A DNA stretch of 44,766 nucleotides from Vectrevirus DIJ06P1. The notes beneath the pieces are model-generated. The model worked only from the letters and a program-made list of their open reading frames with translations, had not been told where the DNA came from and did no database searches. Positions 23,558 through 27,705 of this stretch are shown piece after piece. The position numbers and the translations under genes were made by a program. Positions within the stretch are counted from its first letter, which is position 1. Each line of letters begins with the position of its first letter. The DNA lies in the sequence record OZ035817.1; one strand, given 5' to 3'.

Positions 23558-23776
23558 ATGAAAGTACAAATCGTAACCCTGCACTGCAAGAAAGGAATTA
23601 CAACTCTTGGCGGCAACACTTTTCACTCCTTCTCTGAGGGGGGCACATATGCCGACCTGCACTACATCTGGCGCGACGGACAGCACGTGGTGAACTACAG
23701 CGACCCAGCTACGGGGAAACGCCACGGCGTATCGCTTCCGGCGCATGACATTGCTCAGGTGAACACAGTTTTATAA
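23558..23776 (+). CDS. hypothetical protein, GC-rich compositional outlier
   Basis: 72-aa ORF after AAGGAG; noticeably GC-richer with GCG/CGC/GGC codons unlike its neighbours. Confidence 0.45.
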   Translation: MKVQIVTLHCKKGITTLGGNTFHSFSEGGTYADLHYIWRDGQHVVNYSDPATGKRHGVSLPAHDIAQVNTVL

Positions 23777-23808: not shown

Positions 23809-23832
23809 ATTTACTGGACACTATAGAAGAGA
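23809..23832 (+). promoter_or_regulatory. SP6-type phage RNAP promoter
   Basis: ATTTACTGGACACTATAGAAGAGAAG. Confidence 0.75.
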
Positions 23833-23881: not shown

Positions 23882-24253
23882 ATGTTCAAGATTGAAACTA
23901 TCGTAAACCGTGTTGTTAAAGGTGCTGCTCTGGTATCCGTTGAGTCTTTCATTATCGTCGATGAAGCTGATCAACTGGTAGCTGGTACTAAGGCTTACGA
24001 TACCCGTGAAGAAGCTCAGGCTAAGATTGACAGCATGGGTAACTTCGCTGCTGGTCTGGAGTTCGCTCGTGCTTGCTTCCCTGAGCAGGCTGACAAAGCC
24101 CAGATCGGTAAGGCTAACATCGTAGCTGAATATCTGGATTGGATTGCTGCTGGTAAACCAGTGAAAGAAGTTAAAGCTGCTGAAGAAGCTGAAGCTCCGG
24201 CAGTAGAAGAAACCAAAGCAGAAGAAGTACTGTCTGCTGAAGAAGAATTTTAA
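23882..24253 (+). CDS. small acidic protein in a promoter-terminator cassette (function unknown)
   Basis: ATG after AAAGGAG; 123 aa; strongly biased codons; C-terminus ends SAEEEF; followed directly by a terminator. Confidence 0.6.
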   Translation: MFKIETIVNRVVKGAALVSVESFIIVDEADQLVAGTKAYDTREEAQAKIDSMGNFAAGLEFARACFPEQADKAQIGKANIVAEYLDWIAAGKPVKEVKAAEEAEAPAVEETKAEEVLSAEEEF

Positions 24254-24259
24254 TTGATG

Positions 24260-24293
24260 CCCTGTCTGCCTTAGTGTAGGCAGGGTCTTTTGC
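24260..24293 (+). terminator. intrinsic terminator
   Basis: CCCTGTCTGC - loop - GTAGGCAGGG followed by TCTTTTG; sequence-related to the terminator after the capsid gene. Confidence 0.6.
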
Positions 24294-24590: not shown

Positions 24591-25531
24591 TAGATGCTGA
24601 TATGCTACCCTACATCGTAGCTTATACAATCAGTGACATGACTTATGTGCGAGCCACAACTCGTGTTAAGTCAGGACAAGTCCCATCAATCAAAGATACA
24701 CCTGAGTGTAAGCAAGCGTGTGACCGTGTGAACTCCTTGCTTAACTCTTGGGTATACGCAGCAGAGTGCGATGCAGCTAAGTTATTCATGACGAAATCAG
24801 AAGCTAACTTCCGTGTTCGCCTAGCCTTCACCAAGCCTTATAAGGGTCAACGTAAGACCGAGAAGCCTCCGTTCTTCTGTGAATTGCGAGAGCATCTCTT
24901 AGAGGTTCATGGTGCAATCTTGGCAGATGGAGAAGAGGCTGATGACCTCATGAGCATTGCACAATGGGACAGCCACCGCCGCTTCCAGCAAGATACAGGT
25001 AACGAGTTCCCTATCGGTAGTCCAGAGCATAAAGCATTCTCTGATACTTGCATCGTTTCCTTAGATAAGGATTTGATGATTGTTCCCGGTTGGCATCTTC
25101 AGCCGGGTCAAGAGAAGAAATGGGTAGAGCCTATGGGTTGGCTTGAGTTACGCCGTAAGGCTAATGGTCAGGTTAAAGACCTTAAAGGTGCTGGCCTCAT
25201 GTTTCATTATGCACAGATGATTATCGGTGATGATATTGATAACTATGCTGGCATACCTGGACGTGGTGCTAAATACGCCTATGATCTTCTCAAAGATTGT
25301 AAGACAGAGAAAGAGTTGTACATGGCAGTGCTTGGTGCTTACAAGGCTAAGTTCGGACATGGACAAGTTAAGATTAAGAATTACCGAGGTGGTTATCGTA
25401 TCGGCAAGGCTTTTGACCTGATGCTCGAATGTGGTCGCCTAGCTCACATGGCAAGATTCAAAGGTGATATATGGCGAGCCGATAAGAACCCAATCTTGTG
25501 GGGAGATGATGCGGAATGGTTAGCAAATTAA
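24503..25531 (+). CDS. 5'-3' exonuclease (T7 gp6-like, FEN family)
   Basis: ATG at 24503 after GAAGGAG (GTG at 24494 possible); N-terminal IALIDADMLPYIVAY and central acidic clusters typical of FEN-type nucleases. Confidence 0.8.
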   Translation: MRPNFDFGATVSEDNNLILWPTEGNRIALIDADMLPYIVAYTISDMTYVRATTRVKSGQVPSIKDTPECKQACDRVNSLLNSWVYAAECDAAKLFMTKSEANFRVRLAFTKPYKGQRKTEKPPFFCELREHLLEVHGAILADGEEADDLMSIAQWDSHRRFQQDTGNEFPIGSPEHKAFSDTCIVSLDKDLMIVPGWHLQPGQEKKWVEPMGWLELRRKANGQVKDLKGAGLMFHYAQMIIGDDIDNYAGIPGRGAKYAYDLLKDCKTEKELYMAVLGAYKAKFGHGQVKIKNYRGGYRIGKAFDLMLECGRLAHMARFKGDIWRADKNPILWGDDAEWLAN

Positions 25532-25926
25532 AATCATCGGAGGTAGCAGCTTATAAGAGGGAATTGCTAGAGAAGCAAGGGTGGAAGTGCCCACTATGTG
25601 GCGGCAGTCTCAAGGCTGTTACTCCTATAAACCGTGTACTTGACCATGACCATGAGACAGGATTCTGCCGTGCTGTTGTATGCCGAGGCTGCAATGGTGC
25701 AGAAGGAAAGATTAAGGGTGTTATCTCTGGTTACGGTAAGGCTGGTAACAACCGTTACTTCCAGCTTCAATGGTTAGAGCGACTATATGAATACTGGAAG
25801 TTACATAGTACGCCTCAGACAGATAAGTTATATCACAAACATCAAACGGAGGCAGAGAAGCGCGAGGCTAAGAACCGTAAGGTACGCCTTGCTTATGCAA
25901 GAAAGAAGGAGGTTAAAGTTGGGTAA
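25516..25926 (+). CDS. endonuclease VII-like junction-resolving nuclease
   Basis: CPLCG...LDHDHETG...CRGCNGAEG matches the Zn-binding and H-N-H-like core of T4 endonuclease VII as I recall it. Confidence 0.75.
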   Translation: MVSKLKSSEVAAYKRELLEKQGWKCPLCGGSLKAVTPINRVLDHDHETGFCRAVVCRGCNGAEGKIKGVISGYGKAGNNRYFQLQWLERLYEYWKLHSTPQTDKLYHKHQTEAEKREAKNRKVRLAYARKKEVKVG

Positions 25927-26926
25927 GCTTCGCAGCTTGTACAAAGACTCCGAGGTACTTGATGCAATCGAGCAAGCTACCGACGAGAAAGGTAATGTTA
26001 ATTACAATGAGATGGCACGTGTATTATCGTGTCACCCTGTGGGTAAGAAGATTACCCGCCAGTTGGCTCGATACTGGCATGGTCAATTCAAGAAGACCAA
26101 GAAGAATGGTGATTATTACCAGACCCTTCTGCAAGAAGATAAGCGTATCAAAGAAGAGCGTAAGCTCAGGACTCCTGACCGCTACGAGGATTTGGCTATT
26201 GTTCCATTGCCTGACTCGCCTCATCGAAGTGTACTGGTGATACCTGATACTCATGCACCTTATGAGCACCCAGATACCCTAGAGTTCCTTGCAGCCGTGG
26301 CAGCACGTTACCGTCCAGACACAGTGGTACACCTAGGAGATGAGGCAGACAAACATGCCTTGTCATTCCACGATTCGGACCCAAATCTGGATAGTGCTGG
26401 CATGGAGTTGGAGAAGGCTCGTATCTTCATGCACAAATTGCACAAGATGTTCCCTGTGATGCGCCTGTGTCACTCCAACCACGGCTCTATGCACTTCCGT
26501 AAGGCAAGCGCCAAGGGCATCCCTGTGCAATACCTGCGCACCTACCGTGAAGTTTTCTTCCCGCAGGGAGGTGGCGACCAGTGGGATTGGCAGCATACGC
26601 ACGTCCTTGAGTTGCCGAATGGTGAACAAGTGGCATTCAAGCATCAACCTGCTGGCTCTGTCCTAGCAGATGCAGCGCATGAGCGTATGAACCTGGTGTG
26701 TGGTCACTTGCACGGTAAGATGTCTGTGGAGTACGCACGTAATACACATGAACAGTATTGGGCTGTGCAGGGTGGCTGCTTAATTGATGAGTCATCCCGT
26801 GCATTTGCCTATGGGCGTGAGTCTAAATACAAGCCAGCATTAGGTTGTGTGGTTATTCTGGAAGGTGTGCCTCATATTGTCCCGATGCAAACCAATAGCG
26901 ACAACCGTTGGATTGGCAAGATTTAG
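25919..26926 (+). CDS. calcineurin-like metallophosphoesterase
   Basis: Probable TTG start 6 nt after AAGGAGG; motifs IPDTHAP, HLGDEAD, SNHG, CGHLHG match the phosphoesterase metal-binding series. The ORF-track start at 25787 is an upstream extension. Confidence 0.65.
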   Translation: MGKLRSLYKDSEVLDAIEQATDEKGNVNYNEMARVLSCHPVGKKITRQLARYWHGQFKKTKKNGDYYQTLLQEDKRIKEERKLRTPDRYEDLAIVPLPDSPHRSVLVIPDTHAPYEHPDTLEFLAAVAARYRPDTVVHLGDEADKHALSFHDSDPNLDSAGMELEKARIFMHKLHKMFPVMRLCHSNHGSMHFRKASAKGIPVQYLRTYREVFFPQGGGDQWDWQHTHVLELPNGEQVAFKHQPAGSVLADAAHERMNLVCGHLHGKMSVEYARNTHEQYWAVQGGCLIDESSRAFAYGRESKYKPALGCVVILEGVPHIVPMQTNSDNRWIGKI

Positions 26927-26945
26927 TTGACACTATAGAACAAAG
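26921..26945 (+). promoter_or_regulatory. SP6-type phage RNAP promoter
   Basis: ATTTAGTTGACACTATAGAACAAAGGG; closest to the canonical SP6 sequence; overlaps the upstream stop codon. Confidence 0.7.
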
Positions 26946-27026: not shown

Positions 27027-27530
27027 ATGTCACACTATGAATGTAAGAAGTGTCATAAGCGTTATGATTACTGTACTTGTGGTCAAGAGAAAACATCTTT
27101 TAAAGTTGGAGACAAGGTATTTCGTAATGAAAAAGATTCTATTCCTTGGAATCAATACTGCAAAGAAGCTGGTATTGACCCTGATAGCCCTGTAACCATA
27201 GATGATATTGATGGCATTAACTTGTGCTTTCGTGAGGTGAGGGGTACAGGTTGGGATTCCAAAAAATTCAAACTTGCATCTGATAAGTTAGACAACAATA
27301 TGGTAACTCAGCCTAAGCACTACGAGTTCTTTGATGGTGTAGAGGCAATCACTATCATTGCCCGCAGTATGACTGAAAAGCAATTCGCTGGGTACTGCAT
27401 GGGTAATGCCCTTAAGTATCGCCTGCGTGCAGGTAAGAAGTTCAATACTGAAGAAGACTTGAAGAAGGCAGACTATTATAAAGAGTTATTCCAGAAGCAT
27501 CGTCACGAATGTATTGATGAGGATATTTAA
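27027..27530 (+). CDS. Zn-ribbon protein with DUF3310-like C-terminal domain
   Basis: ATG at 27027 after GGAGG; N-terminal CKKCHKRYDYCTC; C-terminal PKHYEF...GNALKYRLRAGKK...EDLKKADYY pattern; AT-rich gene. Confidence 0.5.
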   Translation: MSHYECKKCHKRYDYCTCGQEKTSFKVGDKVFRNEKDSIPWNQYCKEAGIDPDSPVTIDDIDGINLCFREVRGTGWDSKKFKLASDKLDNNMVTQPKHYEFFDGVEAITIIARSMTEKQFAGYCMGNALKYRLRAGKKFNTEEDLKKADYYKELFQKHRHECIDEDI

Positions 27531-27531
27531 T

Positions 27532-27705
27532 ATGGAAGGTAAACTGTATAGAGGGTACTTCGGTAACTTATATAAAGTAAGCTCTCGCGGTTTTGTATTG
27601 ACCTCTGATGATGAAGGTGCAATGTGGCACATAAGTGCATATGGTTCTAACTTAGCACACTTTAAAGAGGCAATAGTCAAAGGTGTGATGAAGGAGGTGA
27701 AATGA
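27532..27705 (+). CDS. hypothetical small protein
   Basis: ATG at 27532; 57 aa; stop overlaps the ligase start. Confidence 0.35.
   Translation: MEGKLYRGYFGNLYKVSSRGFVLTSDDEGAMWHISAYGSNLAHFKEAIVKGVMKEVK

Follow-up and report, generated by a model that had tools for sequence, protein, structure and literature searches.

The Cluster A mycobacteriophages encode metallophosphoesterases (MPEs), of which Bxb1 gp47 and A10ZJ24 gp48 are the described systems of greatest relevance here. Bxb1 gp47 consists of a catalytic domain only (254-255 residues); its gene lies in a replication module, with endonuclease VII and exonuclease genes in the same block, and the protein moonlights as an integrase cofactor, the recombination directionality factor of the Bxb1 serine integrase. 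[quoted passage not shown] Homologues of gp47 are flanked by the polymerase and primase genes, and this holds also for phages whose integrase is of the tyrosine type (PMC1470463). Elsewhere Bxb1 gp47 is cited as lacking phosphoesterase activity, and the Cluster A MPEs are shown not to be all interchangeable (PMC12287305).

A10ZJ24 gp48 has all five MPE motifs and has been aligned, as a Cluster A homologue, with the Bxb1 MPE (PMC12287305). It is a phosphodiesterase active on linear, plasmid and genomic DNA, and mutation of its motifs abolishes this degradation; it is needed for phage DNA replication in Mycobacterium tuberculosis and is dispensable on M. smegmatis (PMC12287305). The same work presents it as an early gene product with two effects, degradation of host DNA and silencing of defence genes (PMC12287305, EMBO Rep 2025). 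PdeM, an MPE of Pseudomonas putida (TIGR04123), is a ligase-associated Mn-dependent single-stranded DNA endonuclease encoded together with an exonuclease and an ATP-dependent ligase (PMC7826289).

Gene 22 of a K1-5-like phage

The window analyzed here, a stretch of 44,766 nucleotides from Vectrevirus DIJ06P1 (OZ035817.1), is a Vectrevirus (K1-5-like) genome, and its MPE gene is gene 22 of phages K1-5 and SP6. The same gene, with a 335-residue product, a TTG start, an 8-nt overlap and the same neighbors, is present in K1-5 (YP_654123.1), SP6 (AAR90014.1) and AAPEc6 (ANT40827.1), and the window protein differs from these by few substitutions (99.4%, 94% and 99.7% identity respectively). The window has an extra 62-residue open reading frame between the DUF3310 gene and the ligase gene that is absent from K1-5. 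As the same TTG-start gene is annotated as "metallo-phosphoesterase" in K1-5 and SP6, the gene is not new; it is already known and long annotated, and what is new here is its membership of phrog_221, shared with Bxb1 gp47, together with its N-terminal domain and its module context. No experimental study of gene 22 from SP6 or K1-5 came up in the literature searched. The features of the gene and its flanks are as follows.

23815..23828, plus strand: phage-type promoter-like site TGGACACTATAGAA, the nearest one upstream of the MPE gene
25516..25926, plus strand: endonuclease VII gene, upstream of the MPE gene (Pfam Endonuclease_7, E 1.5e-12)
25906..25912, plus strand: Shine-Dalgarno sequence AAGGAGG, contained in the 3' end of the endonuclease VII gene, with 6 nt between it and the TTG
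25919..25921, plus strand: TTG start codon of the MPE gene, assigned from the sequence and from homologous start positions in relatives
25919..26926, plus strand: MPE coding sequence, 335 codons plus TAG; orthologue of K1-5/SP6 gene 22; phrog_221
26927..26940, plus strand: phage-type promoter-like site TTGACACTATAGAA, beginning 1 nt after the MPE stop

A sequence-only reading of this region had placed the start at a TTG six nucleotides after AAGGAGG and overlapping the endonuclease VII stop codon, and both observations are borne out. The spacer reads ttaaag, the frame is open from the TTG to the TAG at 26924-26926, and the endonuclease VII stop (TAA, 25924-25926) leaves the last 8 nt of that gene overlapping the MPE start, which suggests translational coupling. 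AAGGAGG also precedes the start in K1-5, phage 6948, AAPEc6 and SP6, all of which start with TTG at the homologous position; Proteus phage PM85 and Klebsiella phage VLCpiA2b have GTG there, and Aeromonas phage Tola and Pseudomonas phage uligo have ATG. In PM85, VLCpiA2b and Tola an in-frame stop lies 1-2 codons before the conserved start. The TTG assignment thus holds up, given the TTG, GTG or ATG codons at the same position in relatives and the upstream stops in three of them. Identical MPE coordinates are annotated in GenBank and RefSeq, with the same start in K1-5, SP6, phage 6948 and AAPEc6, and in the K1-5 genome this is the sole TTG start among 52 annotated coding sequences. Longer products beginning at ATG 25787 or ATG 25895 were rejected because of the stops in the three relatives, and the in-frame ATG at 25895 is also absent from SP6. 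Translation starts at the TTG, behind a strong Shine-Dalgarno sequence, and is probably coupled to that of endonuclease VII.

The motif series is not a chance likeness. The protein matches phrog_221 with an E value of 4.3e-105, residues 1-334 aligning with profile positions 16-358 of 367. Its match to Pfam Metallophos (PF00149) is borderline, at 21.7 bits (E 3.1e-4) where the cut-off is 21.5, and 28 of 36 relatives match the same model. Homologues number 2805, the gene is present in 642 phage records, with many Klebsiella, E. coli K1 and Pseudomonas podoviruses among them, and metagenomes hold more than 3000 family clusters at 50% identity. The dN/dS values of 0.014 against K1-5, 0.05 against SP6 and 0.07 against VLCpiA2b point to strong purifying selection on the gene. 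Only 12 MPE loci emerged from 185,579 species genomes scanned, all of them on metagenome-assembled contigs and none in the genome records of cultured isolates, and there is thus no cellular or prophage context for the MPE. Searches of PDB sequences with the protein and with the family profile returned no metallophosphoesterase, and none of the defence families in PADLOC-DB, whose models cover defence and not anti-defence proteins, was matched at E values up to 1.

Domain organization and active site

The MPE has two parts joined by a basic linker, and its features are as follows.

25919..26089, plus strand: N-terminal domain, residues 1-57, a small helical bundle that is weakly Myb/SANT/homeodomain-like (helix-turn-helix, HTH)
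26090..26218, plus strand: basic linker, residues 58-100, with 11 K/R in 43 residues and a pI of 9.1
26219..26923, plus strand: binuclear metallophosphoesterase domain, residues 101-335
26246..26275, plus strand: extended motif I, D110-T-H112-A-P114-Y-E-H117-P-D119, defined by conservation
26336..26356, plus strand: motif II, G140-D141-E-A-D144-K-H146, with D141 the expected metal-bridging Asp
26474..26485, plus strand: motif III, S186-N187-H188-G189, with N187 an expected metal ligand and H188 the expected general acid
26642..26644, plus strand: motif IV histidine, H242, invariant in 36 relatives and at least 90% conserved in 93 family members
26702..26716, plus strand: motif V, G262-H263-L-H265-G266, with H263 and H265 invariant in both alignments

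The N-terminal domain is composed of three helices, including a conserved helix with L49-x-x-Y52-W53, and its fold matches to Myb/HTH-like proteins are weak; the linker contains a single helix at residues 71-80. A Pfam search with the N-terminal 99 residues gave no match, and a PHROGs search with the N-terminal domain recovered only phrog_221 itself. Elsewhere in the family a different HTH domain is joined to the same catalytic domain, HTH_23 in P0147 and HTH_24 in P0186, and there are members with the catalytic domain and no HTH domain, such as that of Pelagibacter phage HTVC026P. We propose that the N-terminal domain of the window protein binds DNA.

The catalytic domain carries the calcineurin-like motif series recognized in the sequence-only reading, with IPDTHAP at residues 108-114, GDEAD at 140-144, SNHG at 186-189 and GHLHG at 262-266, to which FKHQ at 240-243 can be added. 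All five elements of the PF00149 set (DxH, GD, GNH, H and GHxH) are thus present in order, and the fold is that of a beta-sandwich phosphoesterase. Conservation was scored in one alignment of 36 relatives and another of 93 diverse family members that includes Bxb1 gp47. D110, H112, D141, N187, H188, H242, H263 and H265 are invariant in the first, N187 and H188 are also invariant in the second, and judged by these residues the catalytic site is intact. Motif I has the family-specific extended form D-x-H-x-P-Y-x-H-x-D, and across the 93 members P114 is invariant and D110, H112, H117 and D119 are each at least 90% conserved. The conserved loop that follows motif II, up to G161, is poorly modelled, with pLDDT below 50 at residues 146-151.

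Intein-like insertions occur inside motifs I and II among relatives of the MPE, and in P0121 and P0155 the insertion directly follows the GDE of motif II. Inteins typically occupy conserved sites of replication and repair enzymes.

In the expected arrangement, D110, H112, D141, N187, H242, H263 and H265 would be the metal ligands and H188 the general acid; a role for the equivalent residue in the P. putida MPE, His113, has been described (PMC7826289). Two Mn2+ or Mg2+ ions would activate a bridging water, and the bonds hydrolysed are presumed to be the phosphodiester bonds of DNA.

Relationship to Bxb1 gp47 and other metallophosphoesterases

Bxb1 gp47 belongs to the same phage family, matching phrog_221 over its full length (E 2e-115, profile positions 111-363). 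When the family profile was compared by hhalign with individual MPEs, Bxb1 gp47 aligned with 90% probability and an E value of 1.5e-6, in an alignment of 191 columns that runs from motif I past motif V; the same test gave 11% for lambda NinI (78 columns), 6.1% for CpdA (49 columns), 2.9% for SbcD (42 columns) and 1% each for YfcE and LpxH. By these profile scores the likeness to Bxb1 gp47 is specific and not generic. The MPE family and gp47 have family-specific features in common, namely PDTxxP[YF]E following motif I, VVH[IL]GD at motif II and G-x-L-[IM]-D following motif V, and the window MPE and gp47 have the same top fold neighbors, PolD DP1 and Mre11. The two proteins are nonetheless only about 21-22% identical, gp47 is without the N-terminal HTH-like domain, and it has Q where the window protein has H112, such that the two may differ catalytically. 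The integrase-cofactor role is not available to the window MPE, as K1-5-type phages have no annotated integrase. A10ZJ24 gp48 is likened to the window MPE through its published description only, in which no HTH-like domain is described.

PdeM is the only NCBIfam model that recurs in the family, matching 19 of the 36 members with a best E value of 1.7e-4. Against the window MPE it scores 19.3 bits relative to a cut-off of 150 and aligns only with residues 114-146, and the third residue after the motif II Asp is Asp in the MPE versus the essential His81 in PdeM. The gene neighborhood resembles that of PdeM in part: exonuclease and ligase genes lie near the MPE gene in SP6-like phages, but there is no Lhr-core helicase, and KP34 has no annotated ligase. 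PdeM was rejected as the parent family, as the score is far below the cut-off and there is no PdeM structure among the fold matches listed.

The catalytic domain has its best or near-best structural neighbors in archaeal PolD DP1 and Mre11/SbcD, which are replication and repair nucleases, at 12-17% sequence identity. Unlike these, the MPE lacks an OB or capping domain as well as a Rad50/SbcC or DP2 partner, and small-molecule phosphodiesterases score as well as DP1 and Mre11 in the fold comparison, the neighbors including MJ0936, YfcE and LpxH.

Genomic context and candidate functions

The MPE gene is always found in DNA replication or recombination modules. In the window the site TGGACACTATAGAA heads a run of gp18-like, gp19-like, exonuclease, endonuclease VII and MPE genes, so that the MPE does adjoin the recombination nucleases as first noted; because the site TTGACACTATAGAA lies just past its stop codon, the MPE is the last gene before the next promoter. 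Eleven such promoter-like sites were found, where chance alone would give 0.54. SP6-like, Aeromonas and Pseudomonas phages share the order exonuclease, endonuclease VII, MPE ... ligase, with 0.6-1.5 kb between the MPE and ligase genes. In L018, a 35%-identical relative, the order is PolA, PDDEXK nuclease, SNF2 helicase, HNH and then MPE, and in KP34 the MPE lies two short open reading frames downstream of the DNA polymerase gene. A strict linkage of MPE and DNA ligase was rejected, as KP34 has no annotated ligase.

The slot between MPE and ligase holds a DUF3310/gp1.7-like gene in the window, a HAD_PNKP phosphatase and a P-loop protein in Tola, a P-loop protein and a weak dNMP-kinase-like match in uligo, and a dATP/dGTP diphosphohydrolase domain in VLCpiA2b. 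Three different Aeromonas phages have a common block of MPE, polynucleotide kinase/phosphatase, ATPase and ligase genes (PMC9145550). The genes just downstream of the MPE are genes of nucleotide metabolism, a setting that a nucleotide substrate would fit as well as a DNA substrate.

The explanation that we favor, with middling confidence, is that the MPE serves phage DNA metabolism as a metal-dependent phosphodiesterase or nuclease acting on DNA. Membership of the same phage family as Bxb1 gp47 makes a DNA-cutting enzyme the most likely assignment, and among podoviruses the MPE would correspond to the Cluster A proteins Bxb1 gp47 and A10ZJ24 gp48. It might cut as an exo- or endonuclease while phage DNA is replicated or recombined, or while host DNA is broken down to nucleotides.

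A rather unlikely alternative is that the MPE is a nucleotide or oligonucleotide phosphodiesterase for nucleotide salvage. It would take the short oligonucleotides, 3'-nucleotides or cyclic nucleotides that remain after the action of the exonuclease and endonuclease VII and turn them into substrates for a neighboring nucleotide kinase. The MPE-ligase slot is always filled by nucleotide-metabolism genes in the window, Tola, uligo and VLCpiA2b, and the fold neighbors MJ0936, YfcE and LpxH act on small substrates. However, a phage promoter-like site separates the MPE from the downstream genes, and in KP34 and L018 the MPE lies beside polymerase, helicase and nuclease genes and not kinases. The HTH fusions are also hard to explain for a small-molecule enzyme, and the characterized relatives act on DNA.

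It is less probable still that the MPE heals DNA or RNA ends as a 3'-phosphatase or 2',3'-cyclic phosphodiesterase that prepares them for the phage ATP-dependent ligase, in the manner of the MPE domain of bacterial Pnkp. The Pnkp phosphatase domain is of the lambda-phosphatase type, and the hhalign match to lambda NinI, the PPP representative tested, reaches only 11%. The recurrent PdeM match in 19 of 36 members (best E 1.7e-4) would agree with such a function, but it is weak and is limited in the window protein to residues 114-146 and to 19 bits against a cut-off of 150. Proximity to ligase within 0.6-1.5 kb in SP6-like, Aeromonas and Pseudomonas phages, and the block with polynucleotide kinase/phosphatase (Pfam HAD_PNKP), ATPase and ligase in three Aeromonas phages (PMC9145550), also fit; against this, KP34 has the MPE with no annotated ligase, and in Tola a dedicated HAD 3'-phosphatase is present already.

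Cyclic nucleotides are among the substrates of some metallophosphoesterases, and with its active site intact the MPE could be imagined as an anti-defence hydrolase of second messengers such as cyclic oligonucleotides, cCMP/cUMP or cADPR derivatives. We regard this role as decidedly unlikely. In several Autographiviridae subfamilies and 642 records the gene keeps its place in the DNA-metabolism module, outside the early variable region, and its dN/dS is 0.014-0.07; the hhalign match to the cAMP phosphodiesterase CpdA is 6%, there is no NCBIfam match of the CpdA/Rv0805 type, and HTH domains are fused at the N-terminus in the family. The phage messenger-degrading enzymes Acb1 and Apyc1 have other folds.

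The sequence-only reading had also offered a protein phosphatase and an Mre11/SbcD-like nuclease. A Ser/Thr/Tyr phosphatase like NinI that reprograms host or phage phosphoproteins is very improbable, since PDTHAP, GDEADKH and SNHG stand in place of the PPP signatures GDxHG, GDxVDRG and GNHE, NinI belongs to phrog_246 and not phrog_221, its 11% hhalign match spans only 78 columns, and no NCBIfam phosphatase model is matched. Of the Mre11/SbcD proposal the nuclease-like direction survives and the membership does not: a true orthologue processing DNA ends or hairpins with a Rad50/SbcC-type ATPase, the least probable reading of all, is largely refuted by the missing capping domain, the protein ending right after the phosphoesterase core, and by the lack of an SbcC/Rad50-like gene among the 52 annotated K1-5 genes or the window neighbors, the hhalign match to E. 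coli SbcD being 2.9% and TM-scores with Mre11/SbcD only about 0.36.

Returning to a DNA phosphodiesterase or nuclease, we tentatively suggest a broader possibility, itself rather less assured, that the SP6-type gp22 proteins and their roughly 3000 clusters of relatives constitute a widespread and unrecognized class of phage replication nuclease. Such proteins could be accessory exo- or endonucleases working with the phage replisome or recombination machinery, either as editing or processing nucleases functionally like PolD DP1 or as openers of host DNA for its breakdown. In the SP6/K1-5 branch a family-specific HTH-like domain at the N-terminus would direct the enzyme to its target, and the integrase-cofactor role of Bxb1 gp47 would be a late addition to the ancestral function.

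This conserved phosphoesterase family occurs in phages of kinds that are often studied for phage therapy, and its link to Bxb1 gp47 and A10ZJ24 gp48 provides a testable hypothesis, that of a DNA nuclease for replication or host-DNA degradation. A further implication of the link is that a general phage replication enzyme may have been the source of the widely used Bxb1 recombination directionality factor. If true, this would give a role to one of the last unassigned conserved DNA-metabolism genes in the non-T7 Autographiviridae examined.

The phosphoesterase gene and its start codon

The window covers all or nearly all of a Vectrevirus genome of the K1-5/AAPEc6 type (Autographiviridae, Molineuxvirinae), and a 1.6-kb query around its metallophosphoesterase (MPE) gene matches 106 phage records at identities up to 99.4%. 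The MPE is a known, annotated gene that the sequence-only reading had identified correctly; RefSeq and GenBank already carry the identical CDS in relatives, down to its TTG start and its length. The orthologues are gene 22 of K1-5 (YP_654123.1, labelled "metallo-phosphoesterase") and of SP6, with the labels "phosphoesterase" in phage 6948 and "protein phosphatase 2a-like protein" in AAPEc6. Protein identity is 99.4% with K1-5, 99.7% with AAPEc6 and 94% with SP6.

Features at the MPE gene
25516-25926, +, endonuclease VII ORF (Pfam Endonuclease_7, E 1.5e-12), stop TAA at 25924-25926
25906-25912, +, Shine-Dalgarno AAGGAGG, then a 6-nt spacer (from the sequence)
25919-25921, +, TTG start codon of the MPE gene (from the sequence)
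26924-26926, +, MPE stop TAG, the frame being open up to there from the TTG

The claimed TTG six nucleotides behind AAGGAGG and the overlap with the endonuclease VII stop are both found in the sequence, the position of that stop giving an overlap of 8 nt. Comparison of start codons and upstream stops in relatives likewise supports the proposed start and indicates that it is real. The homologous codon is TTG in K1-5, 6948, AAPEc6 and SP6, GTG in Proteus PM85 and Klebsiella VLCpiA2b, and ATG in Aeromonas Tola and Pseudomonas uligo; in PM85, VLCpiA2b and Tola an in-frame stop lies 1-2 codons upstream of the conserved start, and an upstream in-frame ATG at window position 25895 is lost in SP6. The motif M-[GAS]-K-[LI]-R marks the start of all 36 aligned homologues (36/36) within a few residues. 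In K1-5 the MPE gene is the sole TTG start among 52 CDS.

SP6/K1-5-type promoter-like sites with the consensus TGGACACTATAGAA number ten on the + strand; with both strands counted there are 11, where chance predicts 0.54.

Promoter-like sites by consensus match
127, 2664, 4340, 17463, 18154, 21900, 22669, 23815, 26927 and 32131, +

The sites at 23815 and 26927 flank the gp18-like, gp19-like, exonuclease, endonuclease VII and MPE genes; the second (26927-26940, +) begins 1 nt past the MPE stop and is the sole TTGACACTATAGAA variant. A terminator-like hairpin (24259-24286, +; 11-bp stem, T-rich tail) lies directly behind the gp18-like ORF (23882-24253) and ahead of the exonuclease, endonuclease VII and MPE genes. 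It may act as a transcriptional attenuator for the 23815 promoter or as a processing site. The 72-aa gp17-like ORF (23558-23776, +) has a marginal Pfam match to 'Plant viral movement protein' (PF01307, 23.8 bits, cut-off 22.6), which is probably spurious.

Protein fold and family membership

All of the calcineurin-like motifs listed in the sequence-only reading are located in the 335-aa product (IPDTHAP at residue 108, GDEAD at 140, SNHG at 186 and GHLHG at 262), together with FKHQ at 240. An AlphaFold2 model built with a 36-sequence alignment (pLDDT 85, pTM 0.78) predicts a metallophosphoesterase sandwich at residues 101-335; residues 146-151 are poorly modelled, within a strictly conserved loop (H146, S149, H151, P155, G161). 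Foldseek places M. jannaschii Mre11 at the top (E 7e-7) and LpxH next, with TM-scores of only 0.35-0.5.

Fold neighbours of the catalytic domain, with score
PolD DP1 proofreading exonuclease, 13.7
MJ0936, 13.6
YfcE, 13.3
Vps29, 12.0
Polymerase B subunits, 10.3-12.6
Mre11/SbcD, 10-11.7
LpxH, 11.3
PPP phosphatases, 9-10

Residues 1-57 form a small helical domain joined to the catalytic domain by a basic linker (pI 9.1); the N-terminal region matches no Pfam family, and in PHROG nothing besides phrog_221. Most family representatives in the 50%-identity library consist of the catalytic domain alone (about 235 aa), and some carry other N-terminal domains, namely Pfam HTH_23 or HTH_24 (P0147 and P0186).

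The window MPE barely reaches Pfam Metallophos (21.7 bits, cut-off 21.5), and an NCBIfam search of it and its relatives returned nothing beyond a weak match to the ligase-associated endonuclease PdeM, recurrent in 19/36 members and in the window MPE spanning residues 114-146 at 19 bits against a cut-off of 150. Its match to phrog_221 extends over the whole protein (E 4e-105), as does that of mycobacteriophage Bxb1 gp47 (E 2e-115), whereas lambda NinI falls in phrog_246.

Alignment (hhalign) of the family profile with Bxb1 gp47 and five controls
Bxb1 gp47, 90% probability, E 1.5e-6, 191 columns from motif I to past motif V
Lambda NinI, 11%, 78 columns
E. coli CpdA, 6%, 49 columns
E. coli SbcD, 3%, 42 columns
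E. coli YfcE, 1%, 78 columns
E. coli LpxH, 1%, 86 columns

We regard the shared phrog_221 membership and this alignment as decisive on the family question. In a 93-sequence alignment including gp47, P114, D141, N187, H188, H263 and H265 are invariant, and conservation reaches 90% or more at D110, H112, H117, D119, D144, R194, W222, H242 and other positions, defining an extended motif I, D-x-H-x-P-Y-x-H-x-D. At the position of H112, gp47 has Q. The window MPE is almost certainly catalytically active.

The MPE gene is present in 642 phage records, from phages of Klebsiella, Escherichia, Pectobacterium, Pseudomonas, Aeromonas, Vibrio, Proteus, Salmonella, Yersinia, Pelagibacter and others, and has 2805 homologous clusters at 90% identity; of the cluster representatives in the 50%-identity library, 3119 match at E <=1e-3 and 773 at <=1e-30. 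A scan of 185,579 species genomes yielded 12 loci only, all on metagenome-assembled contigs, and the family is essentially phage-borne. For the window gene, dN/dS is 0.014 against K1-5, 0.05 against SP6 and 0.07 against VLCpiA2b.

Intein-like insertions of about 300 aa interrupt catalytic motifs in three relatives, behind GDE of motif II in P0121 (residues 144-442) and P0155 (96-395) and behind DLH of motif I in P0160 (66-374). Each begins with Cys, carries TxxH some 65 residues later and ends with Asn followed by Cys; the P0160 protein also contains a LAGLIDADG_3 domain. The spliced lengths (336, 286 and 286 aa) equal those of intein-free relatives.

Mycobacteriophage relatives

In Bxb1, gp47 serves the serine integrase as its recombination directionality factor, and homologues of gp47 lie between polymerase and primase genes also in tyrosine-integrase phages, which led to the proposal of a role in replication (PMC1470463). 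PMC11795197 cites a report that phage DNA replication requires gp47 (Savinov et al. 2012). The predicted gp47 structure best matches Mre11 and PolD DP1, fold neighbours that it shares with the window MPE, and a purified sample showed exonuclease activity that was weak, depended on Mn/Mg and may have come from a contaminant (PMC11795197). The Cluster A homologue A10ZJ24 gp48 is a phosphodiesterase that breaks down linear, plasmid and genomic DNA and loses activity in motif mutants. It is toxic to the host, and in M. tuberculosis replication of the phage DNA depends on it; Cluster A MPEs are not all interchangeable (PMC12287305). The same paper cites gp47 as being reported without phosphoesterase activity. 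The Bxb1 RefSeq record (NC_002656.1) names the 5.3-kDa gp46 'site-specific recombination directionality factor RDF' and gp47 'metallo-phosphoesterase'; set against PMC1470463, the label on gp46 looks like an annotation slip.

Genomic setting and candidate functions

SP6, PM85, VLCpiA2b, Tola and uligo all keep the gene order exonuclease, endonuclease VII, MPE ... ligase, and the MPE-ligase slot (27027-27530 in the window) is a variable cassette of nucleotide-metabolism genes.

Contents of the MPE-ligase slot
Window, DUF3310/gp1.7-like gene
Aeromonas Tola, HAD_PNKP phosphatase and P-loop protein
Pseudomonas uligo, P-loop protein and weak dNMP-kinase-like protein
Klebsiella VLCpiA2b, dATP/dGTP diphosphohydrolase N-terminal domain

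A 62-aa ORF (27517-27705, +) between the DUF3310/gp1.7-like gene and the DNA ligase has no counterpart in K1-5, 6948 or AAPEc6, and its product matches nothing in Pfam; of the 80 phage records matching a query across it, 43 cover at least 80% of that query, and a hypothetical protein is annotated at the site among the matches listed. In KP34 two short ORFs separate the MPE gene from the DNA polymerase gene upstream, with the exonuclease and endonuclease VII genes 4 kb off, and a 35%-identical relative has PolA, PDDEXK nuclease, SNF2 helicase, HNH and MPE in that order. A DNA replication and recombination module is the constant theme of the MPE gene's setting.

Homology to gp47 and gp48, the fold neighbours, this context, the HTH fusions and the intein-like insertions in relatives point to a DNA phosphodiesterase or nuclease acting in phage DNA replication/recombination or host-DNA breakdown, a reading to which we give an even chance; we infer the DNA substrate, the metal, DNA binding by the N-terminal domain and the biological role. 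A nucleotide or oligonucleotide phosphodiesterase supplying the adjacent kinases is possible but rather unlikely. An end-healing 3'-phosphoesterase serving the ligase is improbable; the KP34 annotation includes no ligase. The second-messenger hydrolase proposed from the sequence is very doubtful. The lambda-type protein phosphatase proposed alongside it is more doubtful still, failing on signatures and profile comparison, and a true Mre11/SbcD orthologue is the least credible, given the profile comparison and a protein without the capping domain and a locus without the partner gene.

The literature searched contains no statement linking SP6/K1-5 gene 22 to the Bxb1 gp47/A10ZJ24 gp48 group. That link is a direct experimental hypothesis, and for this large, strongly conserved family of phage MPEs the interest now lies in the question of substrate.
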